Made by a program: the position numbers and the translations under genes. From an uncultured virus (IMG/VR IMGVR_UViG_3300029954_000006) (lineage: Duplodnaviria > Heunggongvirae > Uroviricota > Caudoviricetes), in IMG/VR virus record IMGVR_UViG_3300029954_000006: a stretch of DNA of 20,000 nucleotides, one strand, 5' to 3'. The notes under the pieces were generated by a model, which was given only the letters and a program-made list of their open reading frames with translations, ran no database searches and was not told where the DNA came from. Of this stretch, positions 1-19,833 are shown piece after piece (within the stretch, counting starts at the first letter, position 1; every line of letters begins with the position of its first letter).

Positions 1-1475
1 GCCGCGGTTTCCTGGTCGAGCGGCTGAATCACCGGCTCCACCATGAAGCCTTCCTTCGGCATGAGCACGATGTCGGCGTGCGTGCCGCTCTTGTCGCGCC
101 GAAATGTCACCTGGGAAATGATCCAGTTCTTGCCCGTGAGTTTGAGGTGCGGCGCGTCCAGGCTCGCGAAGGCGTTGACGTGCCACAGCGTGCCGGCGCC
201 GTCCCGCCAGGAATCCACCGTCAATGAGCAGACATTGGAGCGGCCGTAGCGGCGCGCGACTTCCCATTTGCCGCGCCGCTCCGCGAAATCCGGCGCCAGC
301 GTCGCCTGTTCCGCGATGACGACGAGCTTGCGCATGCGTGGCACGACGGGCGGGTAATTGTCCTGGACTTCCAGCAGCGGCGGCATCGCGGCGCCGCCTT
401 CGACGACGTTCGTGCTGGTGATGTAGACGTCCACCACCGAATACCGTTGGTCCATGCCTTCGAGCGCGGCGCCCTGCTCGATGTTGCGGCCCTCGGAAAA
501 CCCGCTGGCCATGCTGTCCACGCCGACGCTGGCCACGTTCAGCGTGCCGTCCACCTCGTCATAGACCAGCAGCGCGGACCAGCGCGCCACCTGCTCGATG
601 ATCGCGAAGACGGTGTCGCCCAGATTGACGTTGAACTGCTTGATGATCGTGGGCTCGACGTTGCCGAGAATCTGGGTCTGGATCTTGTACTGCGCGGCGA
701 GGTTCGTAATGATCGAGAAGGCGTCGGCCTGGGCGATCTGCATGCCGGCCAGCTGATCCGGGTCCACGTCGCAATCCACCAGATCCTGGCATTTGGAGCG
801 GCCGATGATGCGCACGACGTTGCCGCCCGGCCCGATGCTGGGCATACGCCGATCCACGTAGCCGGTCAGCACCAGGGTGCTCCCGATATAGACGGAGCAC
901 GGGTCGCCGGCGGTGATGTCGACGGTGTTCGGCTGCCCCGGATAGCGTTCGGTGAGCGAAATGTCGAACGTGCTGGGCATGACCTCGATGCCGCGCATGA
1001 TGGACACGGATGACCAGCCGGTGATGGTCAGCCCCTTGACGAGCAGCTGCACGTCATCCGATTGCGATGTCGGCAGCAGCCCCGAGCCGCCGGCCTGCGG
1101 GTCCACGGCGCGCGCGATCGGCACCGCCGGCTCCGTCGCGGCGGGAGAGGCGGCGATGGGGGTGGGGGTGGGCACCGTCGGCGCCGGCGGCCCGAACGGC
1201 ACGGGCAGCCCCGCCGATCCCGTCGCCAGGTTTATTTCCGGGTTACCCGTCGCGGCGCCCGTCGCGGGGCCGGTGGTGGGGATCGCCAGACCGGCCCCCG
1301 CGGCACCGCCCGCGCCGCCGGTGTTGACCGCCGCGCCGAGTTCCGCGCCCGTGGGGCCGTCCGGTTCACTCCCGGCCAACGTCGCGAGGCTGGGGCCAAC
1401 GGTGGGCGGACTGCCGGTAAACGCGGCGGGGATCGGCCCGGTGCCGGAGCCGCCCGGGACGGTCGGATCGCTCAA
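1..1475 (-). CDS. Mu gp44/gpP-like baseplate hub protein, 3'-truncated by the window, with a long Pro/Gly/Ala/Thr-rich N-terminal extension
   Basis: Not in the ORF track because there is no stop in the window. Manually read frame from TTG at 1475 (TTGA overlap with the upstream stop, GAGG upstream). Core reads DDVQLLVKGLTITGWSSVSIMRGIEVMPSTFDISLTERYP...LVLTGYVD...IIGRSKCQDLVDC and ends ...IVLMPKEGFMVEP, typical of Mu P. Follows the DNA-circularization gene as in Mu. Confidence 0.88.
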   Translation of the reverse strand, partial: MSDPTVPGGSGTGPIPAAFTGSPPTVGPSLATLAGSEPDGPTGAELGAAVNTGGAGGAAGAGLAIPTTGPATGAATGNPEINLATGSAGLPVPFGPPAPTVPTPTPIAASPAATEPAVPIARAVDPQAGGSGLLPTSQSDDVQLLVKGLTITGWSSVSIMRGIEVMPSTFDISLTERYPGQPNTVDITAGDPCSVYIGSTLVLTGYVDRRMPSIGPGGNVVRIIGRSKCQDLVDCDVDPDQLAGMQIAQADAFSIITNLAAQYKIQTQILGNVEPTIIKQFNVNLGDTVFAIIEQVARWSALLVYDEVDGTLNVASVGVDSMASGFSEGRNIEQGAALEGMDQRYSVVDVYITSTNVVEGGAAMPPLLEVQDNYPPVVPRMRKLVVIAEQATLAPDFAERRGKWEVARRYGRSNVCSLTVDSWRDGAGTLWHVNAFASLDAPHLKLTGKNWIISQVTFRRDKSGTHADIVLMPKEGFMVEPVIQPLDQETA

Positions 1476-2929
1476 GAGGCCAGCGCCTCGAATTGCACCG
1501 GAAACATATTCGGGTTGATGGGATCGACGCGATTGACCAGCTCGCTGTACCGGCTCGCGTCCTGATACAGCGAATAGGCGATGGCCAGCCCCGGCCGCGA
1601 GGATGGTTCCGTCACGAGAATCACGGCGGCCAAATTCTGCGCGGCGGTGTTGAGCGTGTAGATCACCGCCGTGCGCAGCAGCCGCAGCGCCTGCGCCGTG
1701 GAGCTGTCGACCAGCAGCATTTCCCCGTCGATCAGCGCGCACAGCGCGTAGCGCAGCGAAACGGCGTCCTGGTAGCTGGTCGGCTGATAGGTGGCGACGG
1801 CCGCCGCGATTGATGAAATCGCCGCGCGTCGGCAGAGTCCCACCACGCCCTGCGTCACCGTCTGCACCGCGACGCCGATCGAATCCGCGCCCGTCGCCGG
1901 CACGTACGAGAAGCCGGCGAGCGGGACCAGCAGCTGAATGGCGGTGTAGGGGTCCTGGCAGCCGACGCGCACCGCCTCCGTCATCGCCTGGATCGCCGCC
2001 CCGAGGGTCGCGGCGTTGGCGGCCTGGGCGGCGACGTTCGGTCCCCCGAGGCCGCCGGCGGCGGTGATCGCGGTGTCGCAGGCGATGGTGACGGTGGTGC
2101 GCGCCGTGGTGACCCCGGCAATGGCGTCCTCGATCGACACGCCGGCGGCCTGCAAGGTCGCGCGCGTGCCGCCGACATAGCGCCCCACCAGGCCTGCGAC
2201 GCCGGTGACGGAATTGATGATCAGGCTGACGGAGCGCATCGCGGAAAGCACCGGGACGACAAACACGGACACCGCCGCGATCGCGGCATGCACCGCGCTG
2301 ATGCCGGAATTGATGGCGCTGGCCACGGTGGAGAGGCCGGTGTTGAGGGGGTCGGTGACATAGGGACCGGACAGGCTGGTCGACGCGGAGAAAGAGGTGA
2401 CGGCGGCGGCGTTGAAGGCGGCGCTGGCGCTGGCGATGGCGGTGGCGGCCGTGGTCGTGCCGGTCGGGTAGACCGGCCCCGGCACGGTTTCAAGAAACTC
2501 GAATGAAATCTCGATGCAGCCGCCGAATTCGCTGCTTTCCGTCATCTCCGCGCCGCCGATCAGCGCGACGCTTTTCGAGGTCAGGGACGGGTGGATCAGA
2601 ATCCCGGTGCCGGATGTCTCGCAGGCCGCCATCATGCTGGCGCGCTGGGTGAAAATCGGCAGCCGCGAAATCTTCGGGTCGCCGTCCACAAGGAATCCAG
2701 TGATGCGGTAGGGCCTCGGGTTGCGGCCAAGGTCCTCGACCCACACCACATCGCGGTACGGATAGGTATGCACCGCCGTCTGCCGGCCCGGCCGGATGGC
2801 GGCCTTGCGCGTTGCGAACGGCACGCCACGCCAGGACGCCAGGACGAGATGCTGGGTCCAATCGCCGCCGGCGAGGCCGCCGCTCGTCGCGGTGCCGCCG
2901 GAGCCCGCGGAGGGCATCGAGCCGGACAT
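1472..2929 (-). CDS. Mu gp43/gpN-like DNA circularization (tail-associated) protein, 485 aa
   Basis: N-terminal ASWRGVPF...GRQTAVHTYPYRD...EDLGR...G.LIHP (DNA_circ_N signature). C-terminal IAYSLYQDASRYSELV...INPNMFP. Lies between tape measure and hub. Confidence 0.92.
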   Translation of the reverse strand: MSGSMPSAGSGGTATSGGLAGGDWTQHLVLASWRGVPFATRKAAIRPGRQTAVHTYPYRDVVWVEDLGRNPRPYRITGFLVDGDPKISRLPIFTQRASMMAACETSGTGILIHPSLTSKSVALIGGAEMTESSEFGGCIEISFEFLETVPGPVYPTGTTTAATAIASASAAFNAAAVTSFSASTSLSGPYVTDPLNTGLSTVASAINSGISAVHAAIAAVSVFVVPVLSAMRSVSLIINSVTGVAGLVGRYVGGTRATLQAAGVSIEDAIAGVTTARTTVTIACDTAITAAGGLGGPNVAAQAANAATLGAAIQAMTEAVRVGCQDPYTAIQLLVPLAGFSYVPATGADSIGVAVQTVTQGVVGLCRRAAISSIAAAVATYQPTSYQDAVSLRYALCALIDGEMLLVDSSTAQALRLLRTAVIYTLNTAAQNLAAVILVTEPSSRPGLAIAYSLYQDASRYSELVNRVDPINPNMFPVQFEALAS

Positions 2930-4815
2930 CAGGTCACCGCCGCCGGCGTGCGGATGACGGAGGCCACCTGAAGGCCCGGATGGTCGGCGGTGACCGTCAC
3001 GGTGGCGCCGGGCGGTGCGTTGGTGTGGTTTACCTCAACCCGCAATCTGTCCATCAGGCTGCCCAGAGCGCCGCCGGAGGCGCTTGGCGGCGGCGCCTGT
3101 GCCGGCGGTCCGGCGGGCGCCGCAACGGCCCCTGGCGCGCCGTTGGCGGCGAGTTGCGTGGCCGGGTCCGCAACGCCGAGCCGCATGTTGACGCCGCGCC
3201 GCACCGCCGCCTGGTCCGGCGCGCCGCCCTCCTGGCGCGCCACCGCCTGAATGTATTTTTCCGCGAACGCGGCGTCGCGGAAATTCACGGCGTCTGTCCG
3301 CTTGATGCCGAGGTCCTTGGCGACCTTGTCGATGTAGCCTTCCACGCCTGGGTTTTCGTCCGCCGGCGTGGCGCGGTGGATGATTTCCTCGATCGTGCGC
3401 AGATGGTGCCTGTCCTGGTCGATGAGCAGCTGGTTGAGGTCGGCGGCGACGCCGGTTTCCATGTTGCTGAATTTGGCCATGCCCGCCTGGTTCGTCGCCC
3501 CTTCCTGCCCCACGAAGGTCAGGTTGGTCGGGTTGTTGTTGCGCATGTTCCGGAGATTGCCGCCGCCTTGGCTGGCGTCCGCCCCGCTGTAGACGCCCGC
3601 TCCGCCCGCGGCGCCGCCGGCAGGCCCGGAATCGGACTCGTTGCGGTCATCCATCGCGCGGATGACGCGGCGCGGGCTGCCGCTCGCCCCTTCGCCGGGA
3701 TCATACGTCAAATCCGCGTTCGTCGCGGGCGCGCGCGCCGCCGGCATGCCCGGGCTCGTCGCGGGCGCGGCGCTCAAGAGGGGCGCCTCCGTCGTTTCGT
3801 CGTAGCCGAACAGTTTGCGCACGAGCCAGTTGCGGCTGGCGCTCGTGGTGACGCCCAGGAGATTGTCCACCTCCGTCACGACCCAGATCGCGCCCTTGCC
3901 GATTGTGTCGAAGAACGTCTTGATTTCCCCGGGATGGTTGGCAACGAACCGCGTGATGTCCTCGGTGACGTGTTCCAGCGCCGGGGCCAGCGCCTGCATC
4001 AAATCGAACCCCATGCCGCGAAACTGCTCGGTCAGCTTGTTCTGTTCGCGCTGCAAATCCGCCGCGACGATGGTTTCCGCCAGCGTCAACGGCGGACTTT
4101 TGGCGGCCTCCGCGTTGTAGGCGTCCAGCCCCTCCGTGCCGAATTTGAGCCAGGAAAACATTTCCCGGCCCATGCCGATCGTGTCGAGGAAATGCAGCGC
4201 CGCGTGCTCATGGCCGGACTTCGCGAAGCCTTCCACGACGTTGGCCACTTGCGGCAGCGTTTTGGTGACGTCCGCCACGCCGCGCGCGGTGCCGCCGAAA
4301 TCAATATGCACCTGCTTGAACATATTGGCGGCGGCGTCATTGCGGCCGAACGCCGCGTCCGCGAGCGTGTCCTGCAAGCCCGAAAGGCTTTGCGTCACCT
4401 GATCCGTGGAAAGCCCGGCCAGCTCGCCGGATTTCTGGAGGTTGTAGAATTGCTGCACGGGGATGCCGAGGGACGCGGCGGTGCGGCCGGTGGTCGCGGC
4501 GAACGAGGTGAAACTTTCCGCCACCCCGGCAATGCCGGCGATGATGCCGCCAGCGGCGACGGCGCCGATCGCGGGGATGAATTTTCCCACGGTGGAAATC
4601 GCCGAGGCGGCGGCGCCATGCACGTCATTGACGCCCTTGCGCACCACGCCGAGGTTCGCCCTGGTCAGGCCCATGCGGGTGAACAAGCCGCCCTTGTCCG
4701 GCGTGGCCTTGGTGAGCCCCTTCATTTGGCGCGCGATCTGGGAAAGCGCGTCGGTGGTGTTGTCGATCGCGGAGATGCGGATGCCGATCGCGGCGAGGGT
4801 GGCCGAGCTGGGCAT
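2929..4815 (-). CDS. Tape measure protein paralog 2 (628 aa) with RNNNP-type putative lysozyme/transglycosylase-like domain
   Basis: Start moved to ATG 4815 (MPSSATLAA, GGAGG upstream, homologous to the paralog 1 start). Ala/Gly-rich helical N-terminal half. Domain RNNNPTNL...FSNMETGVAA...TIEEII..ATPADEN...YIDKVA...QEGG at about 3225-3550. Stop overlaps the next ATG (TGATG). Confidence 0.82.
   Translation of the reverse strand: MPSSATLAAIGIRISAIDNTTDALSQIARQMKGLTKATPDKGGLFTRMGLTRANLGVVRKGVNDVHGAAASAISTVGKFIPAIGAVAAGGIIAGIAGVAESFTSFAATTGRTAASLGIPVQQFYNLQKSGELAGLSTDQVTQSLSGLQDTLADAAFGRNDAAANMFKQVHIDFGGTARGVADVTKTLPQVANVVEGFAKSGHEHAALHFLDTIGMGREMFSWLKFGTEGLDAYNAEAAKSPPLTLAETIVAADLQREQNKLTEQFRGMGFDLMQALAPALEHVTEDITRFVANHPGEIKTFFDTIGKGAIWVVTEVDNLLGVTTSASRNWLVRKLFGYDETTEAPLLSAAPATSPGMPAARAPATNADLTYDPGEGASGSPRRVIRAMDDRNESDSGPAGGAAGGAGVYSGADASQGGGNLRNMRNNNPTNLTFVGQEGATNQAGMAKFSNMETGVAADLNQLLIDQDRHHLRTIEEIIHRATPADENPGVEGYIDKVAKDLGIKRTDAVNFRDAAFAEKYIQAVARQEGGAPDQAAVRRGVNMRLGVADPATQLAANGAPGAVAAPAGPPAQAPPPSASGGALGSLMDRLRVEVNHTNAPPGATVTVTADHPGLQVASVIRTPAAVT
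4406..4461. repeat. 56-bp perfect direct repeat, copy in TMP paralog 2 (partner 6219-6274)
   Basis: GTGGAAAGCCCGGCCAGCTCGCCGGATTTCTGGAGGTTGTAGAATTGCTGCACGGG is identical at both sites. An adjacent 27-bp block is also identical (4474-4500 = 6287-6313). Offset 1813 bp. Confidence 0.95.
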
Positions 4816-4816
4816 G

Positions 4817-6646
4817 CTAGACTGCCTCCGGCATGGACACGCGCGTGCGCACCGGCGCGACCGGAACGGTGGGCGGCGGCGGCGCGGCCGGATCGTTGTA
4901 GCCGGCGGTCGGCACGGTGCCGTGATCGACATCGATGCGCAGCCTGGCCATCAGATTGTCCATGCCACCGCCGGAATCGCTTGGCGCCGGTGCTGGCGCG
5001 TCAGGGCCCGCGGGTCCGGCGGCCTTGGCGGCGATCGCGGCACGGCGGATGTCGATGGAGGAGGCATCCTCCCAGGAGTGCCCGACCTTGTCGCCGTAAT
5101 TGCCGCTGACGGCCTCGATCTGCTCCTGGCCATGCGTGCCGGCCCGGGTTTTTCCCGAGGCGATGAGGACATGGCCGCCCGTCTCGCCGGCGGCGGCGCC
5201 ATGCGCCTGGACGAGCACGTCGCCGGTTTTCACCGCCGTCTTGTCCGCGACCGTCTCGCCCCATTTCAGGAAGGAGGTGGCCACCGCGGAGCCGGTGCCC
5301 TGGATACCGACTTCCTTGAGCTGCTGGTTGACGAATTTGGCGCACCACGCTTCGACGCTGTTGTTCATGCCGGCGGCGATGGCGCCCTGATCCTTGTGGG
5401 CGTAGGCGCGCGCGTAGATGTCCGATTCCTGTCCGGTTTGCGTCTGACCGCCGGGTCCGGCCGCCGGGCCGCCGCCGCCGCCGTCCGGCGCTCGCGCTTC
5501 CGGCGCGACGTATCCCGGCGTATTTTCGTCGTCCGGCGGGGGTTTGTCATTGTTGCGGATGCCGAGCTTGTCGAGCACCCAATGATTGACATCGCCGGCG
5601 AAGCGGCCGGTGGCGTAGCCCATCGCATAGTCCGTCTTGACGACTTTGCTCACGGCGTCCGCGACCTTGGCGAGTCCCCTGAGACCGTCAATGACCAGCT
5701 TCAATCCCCGACCGACGCTGTCAAAGGACGCCTTGATTTGCTCTGGATGATTTTGCAGGAACACGTCGAGGCCCTGGGTGACGCTGATCAGGCTGGGCGC
5801 GAGCGCCTGCATCAACTCAAACCCCATGCCGCGGAATTGCTGGGTCAGCGCGGTCTGTGACTGTTGCAGATCGTACGCCTTTTTGACCATGTCCAAGGTG
5901 AGCGGTGGGCTTTTGGCCGCTTCCGCGTTCCATGCGGCCAACCCCTCCGTGCCGAAGCGCAGAAAGGTGAAGGAGTCACGGCCCATGCCGGACGCGTCCA
6001 GCAGGTGCAGCGCGGCGTGGTTCTGGCCGGTGTCCGCGAGGTACTTCACCGCCTCCGCCATCTGCGGCAGCGCGACGAGCACGTTGGCGGCGCCATGGGC
6101 GACGTCGCCAAACCCTATGTGGAACGCGGTGAACATCTGGGCGAGGGCGTTGTTCCGACCGAACGCCGCGTCATTGAGGCCGTCCTGCAGGCCGGAAATC
6201 GCCGTCGTCACCTGGTCGGTGGAAAGCCCGGCCAGCTCGCCGGATTTCTGGAGGTTGTAGAATTGCTGCACGGGAATACCGAGCATCGCGGCGGTGCGGC
6301 CGGTGGTCGCGGCCAGACTGCTAAACCCCGTCACCATCTTGCCGATGCCGGCGACGATGCCGATGCCGGCCGCCGCCACGGCCACGGCGCCGATCGCCGG
6401 GATGAACAGGCCGACGGTGCCGATGGCCGACATCGCCCCGGACCTTATCGCGGAAAAACCCTTGCCGACCGCGCGCATGTTTTTGGCGGTCAGCCCGAGC
6501 CGATCGAACAGCCCCTGCTTTGAATCCTGCGCGCCGATCTTGCCGATGGACTTCATGTCGCGGGAGATACGAAGCAACGTGTCGGAGGCGTCGTTGACGG
6601 CGTCGATCTTGATCTTGAAGGCGGCCAGCGTCGCGGCGTTTGGCAT
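4817..6646 (-). CDS. Tape measure protein paralog 1 (609 aa) with CHAP/NlpC-P60-superfamily (TIGR02594-like) peptidoglycan peptidase/amidase domain
   Basis: Directly follows the chaperone frameshift product, with a G-rich SD. N-terminus KIKIDAVNDAS is TMP-like. Domain AWCAKFVN..L...G..GTGSAVATSFLKWG...GDVLV...GGHVLI...EAVSGNYGDKV at about 5040-5420, with Cys codon at 5342-5344 and His codon at 5171-5173. Confidence 0.85.
   Translation of the reverse strand: MPNAATLAAFKIKIDAVNDASDTLLRISRDMKSIGKIGAQDSKQGLFDRLGLTAKNMRAVGKGFSAIRSGAMSAIGTVGLFIPAIGAVAVAAAGIGIVAGIGKMVTGFSSLAATTGRTAAMLGIPVQQFYNLQKSGELAGLSTDQVTTAISGLQDGLNDAAFGRNNALAQMFTAFHIGFGDVAHGAANVLVALPQMAEAVKYLADTGQNHAALHLLDASGMGRDSFTFLRFGTEGLAAWNAEAAKSPPLTLDMVKKAYDLQQSQTALTQQFRGMGFELMQALAPSLISVTQGLDVFLQNHPEQIKASFDSVGRGLKLVIDGLRGLAKVADAVSKVVKTDYAMGYATGRFAGDVNHWVLDKLGIRNNDKPPPDDENTPGYVAPEARAPDGGGGGPAAGPGGQTQTGQESDIYARAYAHKDQGAIAAGMNNSVEAWCAKFVNQQLKEVGIQGTGSAVATSFLKWGETVADKTAVKTGDVLVQAHGAAAGETGGHVLIASGKTRAGTHGQEQIEAVSGNYGDKVGHSWEDASSIDIRRAAIAAKAAGPAGPDAPAPAPSDSGGGMDNLMARLRIDVDHGTVPTAGYNDPAAPPPPTVPVAPVRTRVSMPEAV
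6219..6274. repeat. 56-bp perfect direct repeat, copy in TMP paralog 1 (partner 4406-4461)
   Basis: Identical to 4406-4461 by direct comparison. Confidence 0.95.
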
Positions 6647-6655
6647 GCGGCCCCC

Positions 6656-6814
6656 CTAGAGCGGCGTCTTGGCCTGCCGGTTCGCCTGCCCGAGCCACCA
6701 CATGAGGCGGGTGCCGGTGATCGCGAACCCCGAGCCGGCGCCGTCCGCCGGCCAGCCGTAGCGGCGCGTCAGGTCCGCGATCAGGTCGAGCCAGTTCGAC
6801 GGCCAGCCCCGGTA
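6656..6814 (-). CDS. -1 frameshift extension of the tail assembly chaperone (gpGT / P2 gpE+E'-like), 52 aa; full product about 236 aa
   Basis: The -1 frame after G GGT TTT reads YRGWPSNWLDLIADLTRRYGWPADGAGSGFAITGTRLMWWLGQANRQAKTPL*. The IADL..YGWP...L.WW..A pattern is typical of gpE'-like extensions. It fills the gap up to the TMP SD. Confidence 0.82.
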   Translation of the reverse strand, partial: YRGWPSNWLDLIADLTRRYGWPADGAGSGFAITGTRLMWWLGQANRQAKTPL

Positions 6815-7365
6815 AAACCCGCGAGGTATCGAAACCCCTCGTCCAATATCGTGATCGGCACGCGCTCGATGATGCCGCGGTGGCAGCCGCTGACCAGCGC
6901 CATCAGCAGTATCTGGAATTTGCGGATGCTTTCCGCGTCGCGGCCGTTGCCCAGCTCCGCGTAGGCTTTCTCAAGTTCGCCGGTCAGCGGCTCGCGCAGC
7001 TCAAGCATGTCGTGGCGGCGGCTGTGCAGCTCGATCGGCGGCACCAGGGGGATTTCCAACTCCGGCGGCCGCGTCACGGTGTAGTCAGCCTGGGGCGGCG
7101 CGTCGACGAATTCATCCAGGTAGGCGATGGCCGCGTTCAGATCGGTGACCCGCAGCCGCCGCGCCGCGTCGAGGGGAATGCCGGTCACTTCGGCGATCAA
7201 CTGAATGTCGCGGGCATGCCGCGTCGCCGGCGTCAGGAACGCCGACAACTTGACTTCCGCGCGCAGCACCTCGCCGGTCAGCGGCTCGCGCAGCTTGAGC
7301 TGCATGATCTTGCCCCCGCCGCTGTCAATCGGGGGATCGAGAACGATGATTTTTTCGGGGTCCAC
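6781..7365 (-). CDS. Tail assembly chaperone (FluMu gp41 / Mu gp41-like) with two tandem domains, 194 aa
   Basis: Lies between tube and TMP. Motif L.PPI......L.LREPLTGE occurs twice, 98 codons apart. A 25-bp identical DNA block occurs at 6977-7001 and 7271-7295. Confidence 0.85.
   Translation of the reverse strand: MDPEKIIVLDPPIDSGGGKIMQLKLREPLTGEVLRAEVKLSAFLTPATRHARDIQLIAEVTGIPLDAARRLRVTDLNAAIAYLDEFVDAPPQADYTVTRPPELEIPLVPPIELHSRRHDMLELREPLTGELEKAYAELGNGRDAESIRKFQILLMALVSGCHRGIIERVPITILDEGFRYLAGFTGAGRRTGST
6814..6820 (-). promoter_or_regulatory. Programmed -1 ribosomal frameshift slippery heptamer G GGT TTT
   Basis: X XXY YYZ heptamer in the correct phase, 10 codons before the chaperone stop. 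The -1 frame is open and encodes a recognisable gpE'-like peptide. Confidence 0.82.
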
Positions 7366-7368
7366 GCG

Positions 7369-7755
7369 TCAGGTCCCCGTCAGCCCCGGACCTTCGAAGC
7401 GGGCCTCGAATTCGCCGGTGTTGGCGTCCACCTCCCGCGCCAGCGTGCAGCCCATCGTGCTGCCGGTGACCACCTTCCCATTCGCGAGCGTGATCATGAC
7501 GGTAGACGAAACCATGCCGGCGAAATCACTGACCTTGATTCCGGAATTGTCGCGGACCTTGAAGGCGATGAAGGCGGCAGCGTATTTGCCGGACTGGCCG
7601 TGATAACCGTTGTAACCGACTTGGCTCTCCCGGATGATCACGGTGTCGGAATAGGTCACGTCGGAAATGTTGTAGAGCGTGCCGTCGATTGACGCGGTGC
7701 CAATGCCGGCGATCAGGTTCTGCGGGCCGTTGATGCCGTTGGTGGTGCCGGACAT
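7369..7755 (-). CDS. Mu-like tail tube protein, 128 aa
   Basis: Follows the sheath. IAGIGTASIDG...RESQVG..GYHG...TVMITLANGKV...GEFEARFEG matches the Mu gpM-type tube. AAAGGA SD. Confidence 0.88.
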   Translation of the reverse strand: MSGTTNGINGPQNLIAGIGTASIDGTLYNISDVTYSDTVIIRESQVGYNGYHGQSGKYAAAFIAFKVRDNSGIKVSDFAGMVSSTVMITLANGKVVTGSTMGCTLAREVDANTGEFEARFEGPGLTGT

Positions 7756-7768
7756 GGCTTCGTCCTTT

Positions 7769-7809
7769 CGCGCGCGCGCGCCCGGGGCGGGGCATGCGCT
7801 GCCCCGCCC
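7769..7809. other. Intergenic stem-loop (10-bp GC stem, 7785-7794/7800-7809) next to a (CG)6C tract
   Basis: GGGCGGGGCA-TGCGC-TGCCCCGCCC. No U-tract on the coding strand, so not called a terminator. Confidence 0.5.
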
Positions 7810-7851
7810 GGTTCGGCCGCATAATTTTCAGGGGTTTCTGGGGAGGCGCGC

Positions 7852-9351
7852 TTAGGTTTTGGAGAAGTCGACCAGAACCTCGATCTGCCGGAGCTGGTTG
7901 GCGACATCGCCCGGCCAGTAGATTTTGGCGACGCTGCCGGCCTTCTGGACGATCACGCCGGCGGCGAAATCCTCCGGGTCCTGCATCACGCCGAGGTTGC
8001 AGACATAATCATAACGGTTGATCACCGCCGCCTTTATCATGCTCGGGGTGACGACGGCGTTGTTGAGCGCGCCGGAAATCCGCGTGCTGTCATCGACAAA
8101 GATTTTCCGGCCATAAAGGCTGGCGAGATAGATTTTCAGGTCGCGGCAGGTGTAGGCGAGCTGATAGCGCGTCTCGACGTCGAGAAAGCTGTCGTCCGGC
8201 ACGCCCGCGGTATTGAGTTGATACGTCGTGATGAGGCGGTCGGTGATCACCTGGCCGGCCGCGTTCACCACGAACGTGCTGCCGCCATCGAACAGCAGCG
8301 TGTTGCGGTCGCCCGCCGCGAACCGCTTGGCGACGGGAGGCGCCATCAGGTTCAGGATGATTTCCTGCAACGGCAGCGCCACGTTGGCGCGCACGGACAC
8401 CGCGACCTGACCGGTGATTTCCGCCGCCCAGATCCACGCCGGCTGGGGGGCGTCCCAGAACGGCATGATGGAGATCGCGGGGTCGTTGCGCTCCAGCAGG
8501 AGCGTGGTGACCGCGCCGAGGGTGCCGCGCATCGCCGCGAAGGCGCCGCCGTAGAGCTGCTGGAGCCAGCTCCAGCGGCCCGTGTTGTTGTCCATGAACG
8601 TCTGCCAGGCATTGAGCGACAACGCGTCCGTGTAGGGCATGACAACGAAGTCGAACTGCATGTCCGACAGGTTCGCGAGCGCGGACGCGAGCGCCGTGGG
8701 GTTCTGCGCGCCGCCGGCGAGCTGCGTTCCGGTCCCGACGAGCAGGTTCGTGAAGGTCAGGCCGGGCGGCACGACCTCGCTCGCCGCGTTGCCGTAATAG
8801 TTCAGCCGCGCGTCGATTTCGTTGCCGACCAGGCCCTTGTTGCGCGCGGTGAGGGTGACCACGCCGCCGGCGGCCGTGGCCGTAACCGGGAGCACCTGGG
8901 CGGCGGTGATGGCGGCGGCGATGTTCGCCGCGACGTCAGCGCCGGTGTCGTTGATGTTTACTTGGACGGGCACGAGCACGCCGGTGATGTACAGCGACAG
9001 CACGCCGGTCGCGGTGCAGGTGCCGGCGACGGTGATTGCCAGGGTGGCCGCGACGCTGGCCGGATCATCCTCCAGCGGCAGGTAGTAGACGGTCCCGAAA
9101 TTGTCGGCGCCCCGGTACTGCGCCGTCATCAGCGCCAGCATGGACCCCACGCCGCCCTGCAACACCGCGTCGGTGAGGCCGGCGGAAATGCACGGTTCAT
9201 TCGGCACGGCGGTGCCGGTGGGCAGTATCTGGCCAATAATGAGGGTCTGATACGTAACATCGCCGGAATTCGCCAGCGGCTCGATTTCTACGAACGTGCC
9301 GTGAATACGCAGGTTGGATGGGATTTTCTGGAAAACGATTGACCCGGACAT
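7852..9351 (-). CDS. Mu gpL-like contractile tail sheath protein, 499 aa
   Basis: FQKIPSNLRI.G.FVE...LIIGQ, GVGSMLALM, VTLTARNKG..GNEID, GRWSWLQQLYG, DDSFLDVET motifs. Length is typical. Confidence 0.95.
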   Translation of the reverse strand: MSGSIVFQKIPSNLRIHGTFVEIEPLANSGDVTYQTLIIGQILPTGTAVPNEPCISAGLTDAVLQGGVGSMLALMTAQYRGADNFGTVYYLPLEDDPASVAATLAITVAGTCTATGVLSLYITGVLVPVQVNINDTGADVAANIAAAITAAQVLPVTATAAGGVVTLTARNKGLVGNEIDARLNYYGNAASEVVPPGLTFTNLLVGTGTQLAGGAQNPTALASALANLSDMQFDFVVMPYTDALSLNAWQTFMDNNTGRWSWLQQLYGGAFAAMRGTLGAVTTLLLERNDPAISIMPFWDAPQPAWIWAAEITGQVAVSVRANVALPLQEIILNLMAPPVAKRFAAGDRNTLLFDGGSTFVVNAAGQVITDRLITTYQLNTAGVPDDSFLDVETRYQLAYTCRDLKIYLASLYGRKIFVDDSTRISGALNNAVVTPSMIKAAVINRYDYVCNLGVMQDPEDFAAGVIVQKAGSVAKIYWPGDVANQLRQIEVLVDFSKT

Positions 9352-18854: not shown

Positions 18855-18975
18855 CGCGAAAACTCCAGTTTTAACTCGCCAGTTTCCCAAATGAGCAGTT
18901 GCGGCAGGCCGCGTTTTGCGGCTCCCTGCGTTGGCGGTTCCGCATCCCGCGAGCCGCGAACAGGGACTTTCTCGA
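18855..18975. promoter_or_regulatory. Divergent intergenic region; candidate late promoter and cos/packaging region
   Basis: Only spacer between the head-to-head terS and DUF932 genes. Relatively AT-rich near terS, with repeated AACTC(G)CCAGTTT-like words and short GCCGC/GCGGC dyads. Function is inferred. Confidence 0.45.
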
Positions 18976-19833
18976 ATGACGTTTATCAATCGACACTCGA
19001 TGCACATCGGCCAATCGGTCCTGACCGACGAGCAGATTTCCACCGCGGCGCCCTCGGTATTCGCCTCCGAGGCGCATGAGAGCCGCAGCGCGCGGTTCGC
19101 GGTCATCCCCACGGGCGTGGTCATCGGCGCCCTTCGCGCCGAGGGGTTCGATCCGGTTTTCGCCAAGCAGAGCGCCGCGCGGTACGGCAGGAACGAGCAC
19201 GGCAAGCATCTGGTCCGGTTCCGCCATCGCAGCCAGCCTAGCACGACGCATGGCCTGCGGGTCGGCGCCACGTTCCCCGAGGTCGTTCTGGTCAACGCGC
19301 AGGACGGATCATCGGCCTACAAGCTCTATGCCGGTGTTTTCAGGCTGGTTTGCCTCAACGGCATGATCGCGTCGGACCGGCTCGACGGCTCGGTATCGGT
19401 CAGTCATTCCGGCGACGTTCGGTCCAAGGTCATCCAGGGCAGTTACAAGGTGCTCAACGAGAGCCGGACGGCGCTGCAATGCGCCGACGCCTGGGCCGGG
19501 ATCGAGCTGTCCCCCGATGAGCAACACGCGTTCGCCGAGCAGGCGCATTTCCTGCGGTTCGCCGATGCCGCCGGCGAGATATCGACCGCGATCCGCCCCG
19601 AGCAGTTGCTCGATGTCCGCCGCCAGGAGGATCGGCCGAACGATCTCTGGACGACGTTCAACCGGATCCAGGAAAACGCTGTGCGCGGCGGCCTGCGCGG
19701 CCTGACGCGCGATCCCGTGACGCGGCGCACCCGCCGCAGCACATCGCGCGAAGTCCAGGGCATCGACGGCGATGTGCGCCTCAACCGGGCACTCTGGGCT
19801 CTCGGCGCGCGCATGGCCGAAATCAAGGCCTGA
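18976..19833 (+). CDS. DUF932 (DUF945; YafZ/YfjQ-like) family protein, 285 aa
   Basis: Start moved to ATG 18976 (AGGGA SD). APSVFASEAHESRSARF..IPT...LRAEGF.P, KHLVRFR, EVVLVN..DGSSAY.L.AGVFRLVCLNGMI, RRQED..NDLWTTFNRIQEN, GIDGDVRLNRALW. Confidence 0.93.
   Translation: MTFINRHSMHIGQSVLTDEQISTAAPSVFASEAHESRSARFAVIPTGVVIGALRAEGFDPVFAKQSAARYGRNEHGKHLVRFRHRSQPSTTHGLRVGATFPEVVLVNAQDGSSAYKLYAGVFRLVCLNGMIASDRLDGSVSVSHSGDVRSKVIQGSYKVLNESRTALQCADAWAGIELSPDEQHAFAEQAHFLRFADAAGEISTAIRPEQLLDVRRQEDRPNDLWTTFNRIQENAVRGGLRGLTRDPVTRRTRRSTSREVQGIDGDVRLNRALWALGARMAEIKA

Follow-up and report, generated by a model that had tools for sequence, protein, structure and literature searches.

Among contractile-tailed phages, the tape measure proteins (TMPs) closest in setting to those described here are Mu gp42 and Pa193 gp41. 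According to the published descriptions, each is the product of one gene in the same slot, forms a homo-oligomer in a simple contractile tail, and has a trimeric C-terminus on the baseplate hub, where three TMP C-termini bind the hub and the spike; Pa193 gp41 also carries a putative transglycosylase domain (PMC11915804, PMC11456595). For T4, six TMP chains are described, of which three are attached distally and the others adopt a different conformation (10.64898/2026.03.06.709160). The presence of a hydrolase inside a TMP is established; TMP gp95 of phiCbK contains a CHAP domain, and the same report calls CHAP within a TMP not unusual (PMC3556154). Work on Sle1 describes TMP-related scaffolds with exchangeable C-terminal domains (PMC13277306). 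Here, we analysed a window of 20,000 nucleotides (the whole stretch of DNA under study), which is the final 20 kb of the 64,067-nt record IMGVR_UViG_3300029954_000006 from an uncultured tailed virus. Two tandem genes, P0001 (gene 1, copy 1) and P0002 (gene 2, copy 2), occupy the TMP slot and carry different hydrolase-type domains, hereafter cassettes. We predict, with confidence evenly balanced, that both proteins are packaged in the tail, copy 2 on the baseplate hub and copy 1 co-loaded alongside it.

The minus-strand gene order, assigned with Pfam and PHROG, is terminase, portal, S49 protease, capsid, sheath, tube, chaperone, P0001, P0002, DNA-circularisation protein, and gpP hub. The pair is thus bounded by the sheath, tube, and chaperone genes upstream and by the DNA-circularisation and gpP hub genes downstream, and an earlier reading made from the sequence alone (the sequence-only reading) was right that two intact genes (609 and 628 amino acids) share a single TMP slot. 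The stop codon of gene 1 and the ATG of gene 2 lie one base apart; gene 2 in turn runs into the next gene, its stop codon sharing bases with the ATG for the DNA-circularisation protein. The homology claimed for the N-terminal regions is borne out by BLASTP (190 of 344 residues identical, 55%, E = 2e-109); the stretch of 26 identical residues is present, and the C-termini give an additional short match (15 of 29 identical). The nucleotide identity of the paralogs is 71% over 722 nt. The N-terminal regions of both copies match the PHROG TMP profiles 2276, 8125, and 9570, and family profiles of their relatives match the solved TMP Pa193 gp41 (E = 2.4e-7), as expected if these regions are those of TMPs. 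Pfam matched no family in either full protein or either cassette. The hydrophobic segments are 19-residue Kyte-Doolittle maxima near residue 80, as judged on this simple scale only. Both frames are open, and the GC content at third codon positions (GC3) of 0.85 and 0.87 is like that of the other structural genes. A Shine-Dalgarno (SD) sequence of its own, proposed for each gene, is evident for gene 2 (GGAGG, 9 nt ahead of the ATG), whereas gene 1 has only a weaker G-run 4 nt ahead of its ATG. Profile matches and gene order confirm that P0001 and P0002 are TMP-family proteins in the TMP slot.

The TMP family ends in a conserved module of approximately 60 residues, which, judging from its position and from Mu gp42 and Pa193 gp41, is likely the hub anchor. 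The module is intact in copy 2, whereas that of copy 1 is remodelled and retains only the first strand and the terminal motif (Table 1). This favours unequal roles for the two copies, contrary to the equivalence supposed earlier. This C-terminal asymmetry is the point that is new in this analysis.

The tandem is also seen outside the record itself. Two separately named IMG/VR contigs (L001 and L002) are colinear with it through both genes, at 99.8% and 99.96%. The 24 runs listed as holding all or part of the stretch are all peat metagenomes of 2019, possibly from one campaign, and eight of them were aligned to the stretch as unitigs. No RNA run appeared in that list, which argues neither for nor against expression. 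The junction between genes 1 and 2, which is unique sequence, is bridged by single unitigs that extend beyond it by more than 31 nt in both directions in six of the eight runs (X1, X2, X3, X4, X7, and X9), three of which are flagged as possible sources of the record and three are not. In X5, the junction unitig was too short on one side, and in X6, no such piece was among those listed. Unitigs break at a 56-nt repeat shared by the two genes, and the depth of the repeat is approximately the sum of its flanks (12 against 7-8; 17.7 against 7.2 and 11.1; 15.2; 14.9). The depth between the repeats, compared with that of the flanks, was 11.1 against 7.2 and 7.1 in X1, 9.7 against 7.2 and ~7 in X2, 6.5-10.3 against 7.0 and 6.8 in X3, 7.6 and 6.9 against 7.4 and 8.2 in X4, and 7.5 against 9.0 and 6.9 in X5, without a deficit in any of these five runs comparable on both sides. 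No joint skipping 1813 nt was found among the pieces listed, although a collapsed single-gene form could escape because the repeat interrupts the unitigs. An assembly chimera of two related phages with one TMP each, a possibility already raised in the sequence-only reading, would suit the splitting of short-word unitigs by the exact 56-nt repeat, with no listed piece covering the full stretch, and the restriction of all runs to 2019 peat, maybe from one campaign. Nevertheless, the bridged junction, also found in the three runs not flagged as a source, the summed depth at the repeat, the two colinear contigs, and the single-copy state in the genome of the other head and tail proteins (8/8 tested) make a chimera very improbable.

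Two apparent variants were rejected: a joint that "goes back 1757" and "other letters" at 5834-5921 are copy-2 unitigs placed on copy 1. The raised depth at 4432-6248 in X1 (11.1 against 7.1-7.2) and X2 (9.7 against ~7) is a separate observation, and could be noise or amplification of the segment in some genomes by unequal crossing-over.

The cassette of copy 1 matches TIGR02594 (E = 2.9e-11) with 43.8 bits, under the curated cut-off of 70.55 bits, and found no match in the PDB sequence search. Its model (pLDDT, the predicted local distance difference test, 83.7) has a papain-like fold, with the best match among NlpC/P60 and CHAP structures to 7cfl (Z 13.2, root mean square deviation 2.4, 110 residues) and template modelling (TM) scores of 0.75-0.79 to CHAP clusters in the Atlas. 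It thus shares the fold and the Cys-His-Asn set of the TIGR02594/CHAP/NlpC-P60 peptidases but differs from them in its sub-threshold TIGR02594 score and in having no Pfam CHAP match. Cys435, His492, and Asn516 are invariant in nine of nine aligned rows, and their presumed catalytic roles follow CHAP motifs. On the basis of the model, the copy-1 cassette is predicted to be a peptide-cutting peptidase of the CHAP/NlpC fold. Elsewhere, P0005 (901 amino acids) is TMP-like and combines a lysozyme-like stretch containing an NNP motif with, after it, a TIGR02594/CHAP domain similar to that of P0001; this protein is possibly a fused version of the pair.

The cassette of copy 2 resembles the Enc34 endolysin domain (7q47), with E = 0.0013 in a direct comparison and 1e-22 by the family profile; the same profile approach matched the N-terminus of the Gp29 chain (9vvp) with E = 1.6e-39. 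According to its report, the Enc34 endolysin belongs to family PHA02564, is likely a glucosaminidase, and has the key residues Glu131, Tyr95, and Trp79 (PMC8943055). P0002 aligns with it at the RNNNP motif, the catalytic Glu, and the conserved Tyr. Counted along the direct alignment, with a one-residue offset to the numbers in the paper, Glu529 equals Glu131 and is E in 32 of 32 family cassettes, and Tyr494 equals Tyr95. The Enc34 domain sits in an endolysin, whereas its counterpart lies inside a TMP and has Ala482 at the position of Trp79, which is W or Y in 27 of the 32 cassettes (24 W, 3 Y) and A or R in five. Because the single-copy relative with the closest cassette (L095, 56%) has the same Ala, Ala482 is, on the sequences compared, a trait of a sub-lineage and not the decay of a spare copy. 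The model of the cassette is mostly helical (pLDDT 79.3), and its TM score of 0.87 to an Atlas cluster auto-named lytic transglycosylase is under the bar for a name. From the profile matches, we predict a glycan-cutting glycosidase of the PHA02564 type. The unrelated nature of the two cassettes, proposed previously, is therefore upheld, with their spans refined to approximately 5036-5374 and 3172-3564.

Searched against 50% clusters, the N-terminal region has 1,222 relatives with E no higher than 0.001, the best 150 of which were used; named relatives are from Acetobacteraceae and Rhodospirillales. For 134 proteins with at least 500 amino acids, local profiles assigned Phage_lysozyme2 to 58, PHA02564-type to 19, SLT to 15, CHAP-like and glucosaminidase to six each, T4-type lysozyme to two, M15 to one, and lysozyme plus CHAP to one, with no assignment for 14. 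The other 12 carry a type that we presume to be lambda-lysozyme-like. At least seven enzyme types thus serve as cassettes in this family. A tree of 188 labelled N-termini requires at least 64 cassette changes (minimum 7; shuffled 80-93), by which count cassette swapping is routine across the family. P0001 and P0002 are sisters with support of 100/100 in a tree of 20 selected rows, and the same grouping was obtained with 69 rows; their nearest relative, P0008, has Phage_lysozyme2. Approximately unbiased (AU) tests, with groups defined after the tree had been seen, reject joining each copy with its cassette-sharing relatives (p = 9.9e-47 and 1.5e-217), which indicates transfer of the cassettes by recombination. 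Both cassettes have counterparts, 52-56% identical, in proteins that match at only 24-28% identity in the N-terminal region. Either one gene was duplicated and its cassette then swapped, or two sister phages recombined into a tandem. Single-copy relatives carry a CHAP-like cassette (P0021, P0045, P0048, and P0129) or a PHA02564-type cassette (P0025, P0072, and L095), and P0116 has Phage_lysozyme2 and a CHAP-like domain on one chain. Another single family TMP (L005:8828-11092) has a cassette that by its motif resembles an M15 zinc peptidase, with no such match in Pfam.

In contrast to cassette swapping, doubling is the rare part. Out of 157 loci, 98 are bounded (a circularisation gene plus a gene for sheath, tube, or chaperone), and 95 of these hold one TMP and three hold two. 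The three doubles (L001, L002, and L076) all represent the phage described here, L076 being the same contig as L002. The sequence-only reading overrated the surprise of the tandem: swapped cassettes are family-wide, and paired TMP-like genes have been published. The remaining 59 loci comprise 54 unbounded ones with one TMP and five with none. The bounded foreign loci with a full N-terminus number 77, or 65 at 90% identity. They were found through patterns of relatives farther removed and through the family of a Roseomonas genome. The nearest relatives (the P0008-P0018 group) are not among them, and two overlapping sets of 401 genomes, scored with two candidates per genome, yielded no outstanding locus of that group. 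The near-equal length of the copies was discarded as evidence, contrary to the weight given to it previously, because the family length quartiles are 625/663/695 amino acids and 18% of random family pairs lie within 19 amino acids. In four relatives (L009, L018, L091, and L100), 0.8-2.4 kb of other sequence lies between the TMP and circularisation genes, or the gene order is altered.

The two genes share an identical 56-nt tract, the repeat mentioned above. In simulations, a run of this length appeared in 0 of 20,000 stretches at 74% identity and in 7 of 20,000 at 80%. Minor-allele unitigs over the tract were anchored in gene 1 (X2, depth 2.9; X5, depth 4.5) and in gene 2 (X9, depth 2.8). Of their changes, 14/15 are synonymous, including 7/7 in copy 1; four recur identically in both genes at corresponding offsets, and two per gene match the other paralog. 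In these three low-depth unitigs, the shared, synonymous changes, together with the improbable identity, point to gene conversion in the tract and to constraint on both proteins there. The ratio of nonsynonymous to synonymous divergence (dN/dS) between the paralogs is 0.424/0.711 overall and 0.313/0.653 in residues 105-312, and dS is probably underestimated at 85-87% GC3. A more specific arrangement, which we consider unlikely, is a fixed 3+3 hetero-hexamer in which three copy-2 (glycosidase) chains would sit on the hub and three copy-1 (peptidase) chains would have no anchor. By analogy with T4, the two conformations of one protein would have been split into two genes, and gene conversion over the 56 nt would keep a shared interface identical.

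In the co-packaging that we favour, an old tandem duplication of the TMP gene would have given rise to the two copies with their unrelated hydrolase-type domains. One late transcript is proposed for both genes because they abut and because promoter- and terminator-like sites around the pair are at chance level. A single chaperone pair would bind both proteins, which would be threaded unfolded into the tube, with copy 2 anchoring at the hub and copy 1 riding along. Upon sheath contraction, both would be ejected into the periplasm and refold, and the refolded cassettes may breach the peptidoglycan through joint cleavage of its glycan strands and peptide stems. A few relatives, such as P0116, reach the same two-enzyme payload on one chain. 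Co-packaging is supported by the intact frames, the kept catalytic residues, the mostly synonymous changes in the shared tract, and the oligomeric TMPs of Mu, Pa193, and T4. Alternatively, each tail might contain one kind of TMP, so that one genome would yield two particle types, one with the peptidase and one with the glycosidase, which might hedge against differing hosts or wall states. Each copy is indeed complete with an N-terminal region, a hydrophobic segment, and one cassette, and the single-copy relatives manage with either cassette alone. However, neither a switch nor a separate promoter or terminator above chance was seen for two regulated virion types, the genes abut and have one common chaperone, scaffolds 55-58% identical and made together would be expected to mix, and the changed C-terminus makes it doubtful that copy 1 could start a tail alone; we therefore regard two particle types as quite unlikely.

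Several observations weigh against co-packaging. With its C-terminal module, copy 1 ranks among the lowest 14 of 221, against scores of 18-50 bits for nine near relatives, and it may therefore not be loaded at all. A single TMP suffices in 95 of the 98 bounded loci, the dN/dS of 0.5-0.6 is only moderate, and P0002 is without the Trp that Enc34 shares with enzymes of the glycoside hydrolase families GH73 and GH23. Copy 1 has five full-length protein variants (1-8 changes) and copy 2 has one (2 changes); the five variants have no amino-acid difference inside the cassette. Copy 2 might instead be the sole working tape measure, with copy 1 an unpackaged relic or a repurposed protein kept partly as a recombination partner and cassette reservoir. 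The remodelled module, the weaker SD, the larger number of variants, and the sufficiency of one copy are all consistent with such a role, as is the sequence exchange seen in the identical tract and in the four substitutions common to the minor alleles. We judge it somewhat unlikely, since copy 1 has remained intact despite divergence to ~58% identity and has kept its Cys-His-Asn residues, hydrophobic segment, and codon bias, its minor-allele changes are all synonymous, and the depth between the repeats shows no deficit in the five comparable runs.

Table 1. Features of the TMP locus and its surroundings (window coordinates)
Feature	Position	Strand	Basis
Tail tube (7369-7755) and contractile sheath (7852-9351)	7369..9351	(-)	PF10618, PF04984; phrog_185, phrog_165
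Tail assembly chaperone	6781..7365	(-)	PF10109, phrog_166; single copy
Slippery heptamer (6814-6820) and -1 frame extension (putative long chaperone form)	6656..6820	(-)	sequence and three-frame translation
Tape-measure paralog 1, P0001, 609 aa (amino acids), CHAP/NlpC-type cassette	4817..6646	(-)	phrog_2276 TMP, E 1.6e-19
Shared TMP N-terminal region, copy 1, aa 1-344; hydrophobic segment ~aa 70-108	5615..6646	(-)	Kyte-Doolittle maximum 2.38
56-nt tract identical between paralogs, gene 1 copy	6219..6274		exact match
CHAP/NlpC-P60-fold cassette, aa ~425-537; Cys435, His492, Asn516	5036..5374	(-)	TIGR02594, model, fold match
Remodelled C-terminal module of copy 1, centre swapped for a proline-rich stretch	4820..4981	(-)	3.7 bits cross-validated; 14/221 held-out relatives at or below
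Tape-measure paralog 2, P0002, 628 aa, Enc34/PHA02564-type glycosidase cassette (predicted)	2929..4815	(-)	phrog_2276, E 1.2e-44
Shared TMP N-terminal region, copy 2, aa 1-338; hydrophobic segment ~aa 76-101	3802..4815	(-)	Kyte-Doolittle maximum 2.01
56-nt tract identical between paralogs, gene 2 copy	4406..4461		1813 nt from gene 1 copy
PHA02564/Enc34-type lysozyme-like cassette, aa ~418-548; Glu529 and Tyr494 kept, Trp position = Ala482	3172..3564	(-)	profile matches
Family-typical C-terminal module of copy 2	2932..3081	(-)	33.6 bits cross-validated; 102/221 held-out relatives at or below
DNA-circularisation/tube-initiator protein, Mu gp43-like; closes slot downstream	1472..2929	(-)	PF07157, E 2.4e-21

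By gene content, the phage combines a head of the lambda type with a Mu-like contractile tail, both encoded on the minus strand. The genome is a closed circle, with a 129-nt overlap between the ends of the 64,067-nt record, and is not a prophage in host DNA. From the slippery heptamer, we infer -1 frameshifting that would give the long chaperone form, whose extension stops 10 nt ahead of the P0001 gene. The chaperone gene is internally duplicated: it contains two PF10109 stretches, and a repeat of 25-30 nt recurs at a distance of 294 nt. The assembly variant L001 has 16 substitutions bunched in this gene. The gpP hub ORF (open reading frame; window 1-1475) has approximately 130 in-frame Pro/Gly/Ala/Thr-rich residues before its first Pfam domain at residue 141. 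At the other end of the window, a DUF932 gene (18916-19833, plus strand) overlaps the small terminase ORF of the opposite strand when that ORF is read at its full length, in which the profile-matched part begins only at residue 161. Outside the window, a serine resolvase/transposase-like gene lies in a lower-GC stretch (G000:C1:25412-25996; L170:7412-7993; phrog_6620, E = 7.6e-48), and a separate endolysin is present at C1:32099-32671. No other integrase was found among the 37 ORFs scanned there, a subset of the ORFs.

If both proteins are loaded, a mixed tape measure is possible in one tail, which bears on the number of TMP chains, on whether all of them need to bind the hub, and on how length is set with unlike chains. 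Two distinguishable genes for proteins of ~600 amino acids in a small genome make such questions testable. The tandem would also be a second route, besides domain fusion, to bringing two wall enzymes to the injection point. Its value is limited by the uncultured state of the phage, by the familiarity of TMPs with hydrolase domains, and by the doubled TMP-like genes already described.

In the passages available to us, including those on DC4 and MarsHill, we found no paper showing two TMP paralogs in one tail. Where two tape measures are mentioned in PMC3556154, PMC8407745, PMC7953286, and PMC3447690, the subject is chaperones or matches in databases, and PMC2147016 and PMC13250141 gave no precedent for paired TMPs. 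Within the family, a described relative is PhiKM1_530 of the Komagataeibacter phage phiKM1 (BCZ75985.1, LC644974), with 25.8% identity over 92% of the N-terminal query. phiKM1 has the same order of sheath, tube, chaperone, TMP, circularisation, and hub genes and one embedded hydrolase (Phage_lysozyme2), but PhiKM1_530 differs in being single copy, in its length of 805 amino acids, and in its third type of cassette. For MarsHill-like phages, a preprint mentions "two potential tape measure proteins" (bioRxiv 10.1101/2020.12.14.422802). The pair UFVDC4_00259/00260 of DC4 (MZ779063) is listed as adjacent TMP-like genes of similar length (1962 and 1990 amino acids; PMC10638138). Our sequence comparison showed that the two are homologous (best E = 3e-41) and carry Phage_lysozyme2 and NlpC/P60 versus Peptidase M23. 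These Staphylococcus jumbo phage pairs have a Gram-positive host, proteins three times longer, and patchy similarity between the copies. In contrast, P0001 and P0002 belong to a 64-kb phage with a Mu-type tail, align continuously over 344 residues, and stand against a single-copy family background. Paralogous TMP-like pairs with different hydrolases are thus already in print, and the tandem described here is unusual for its family but not new in kind.

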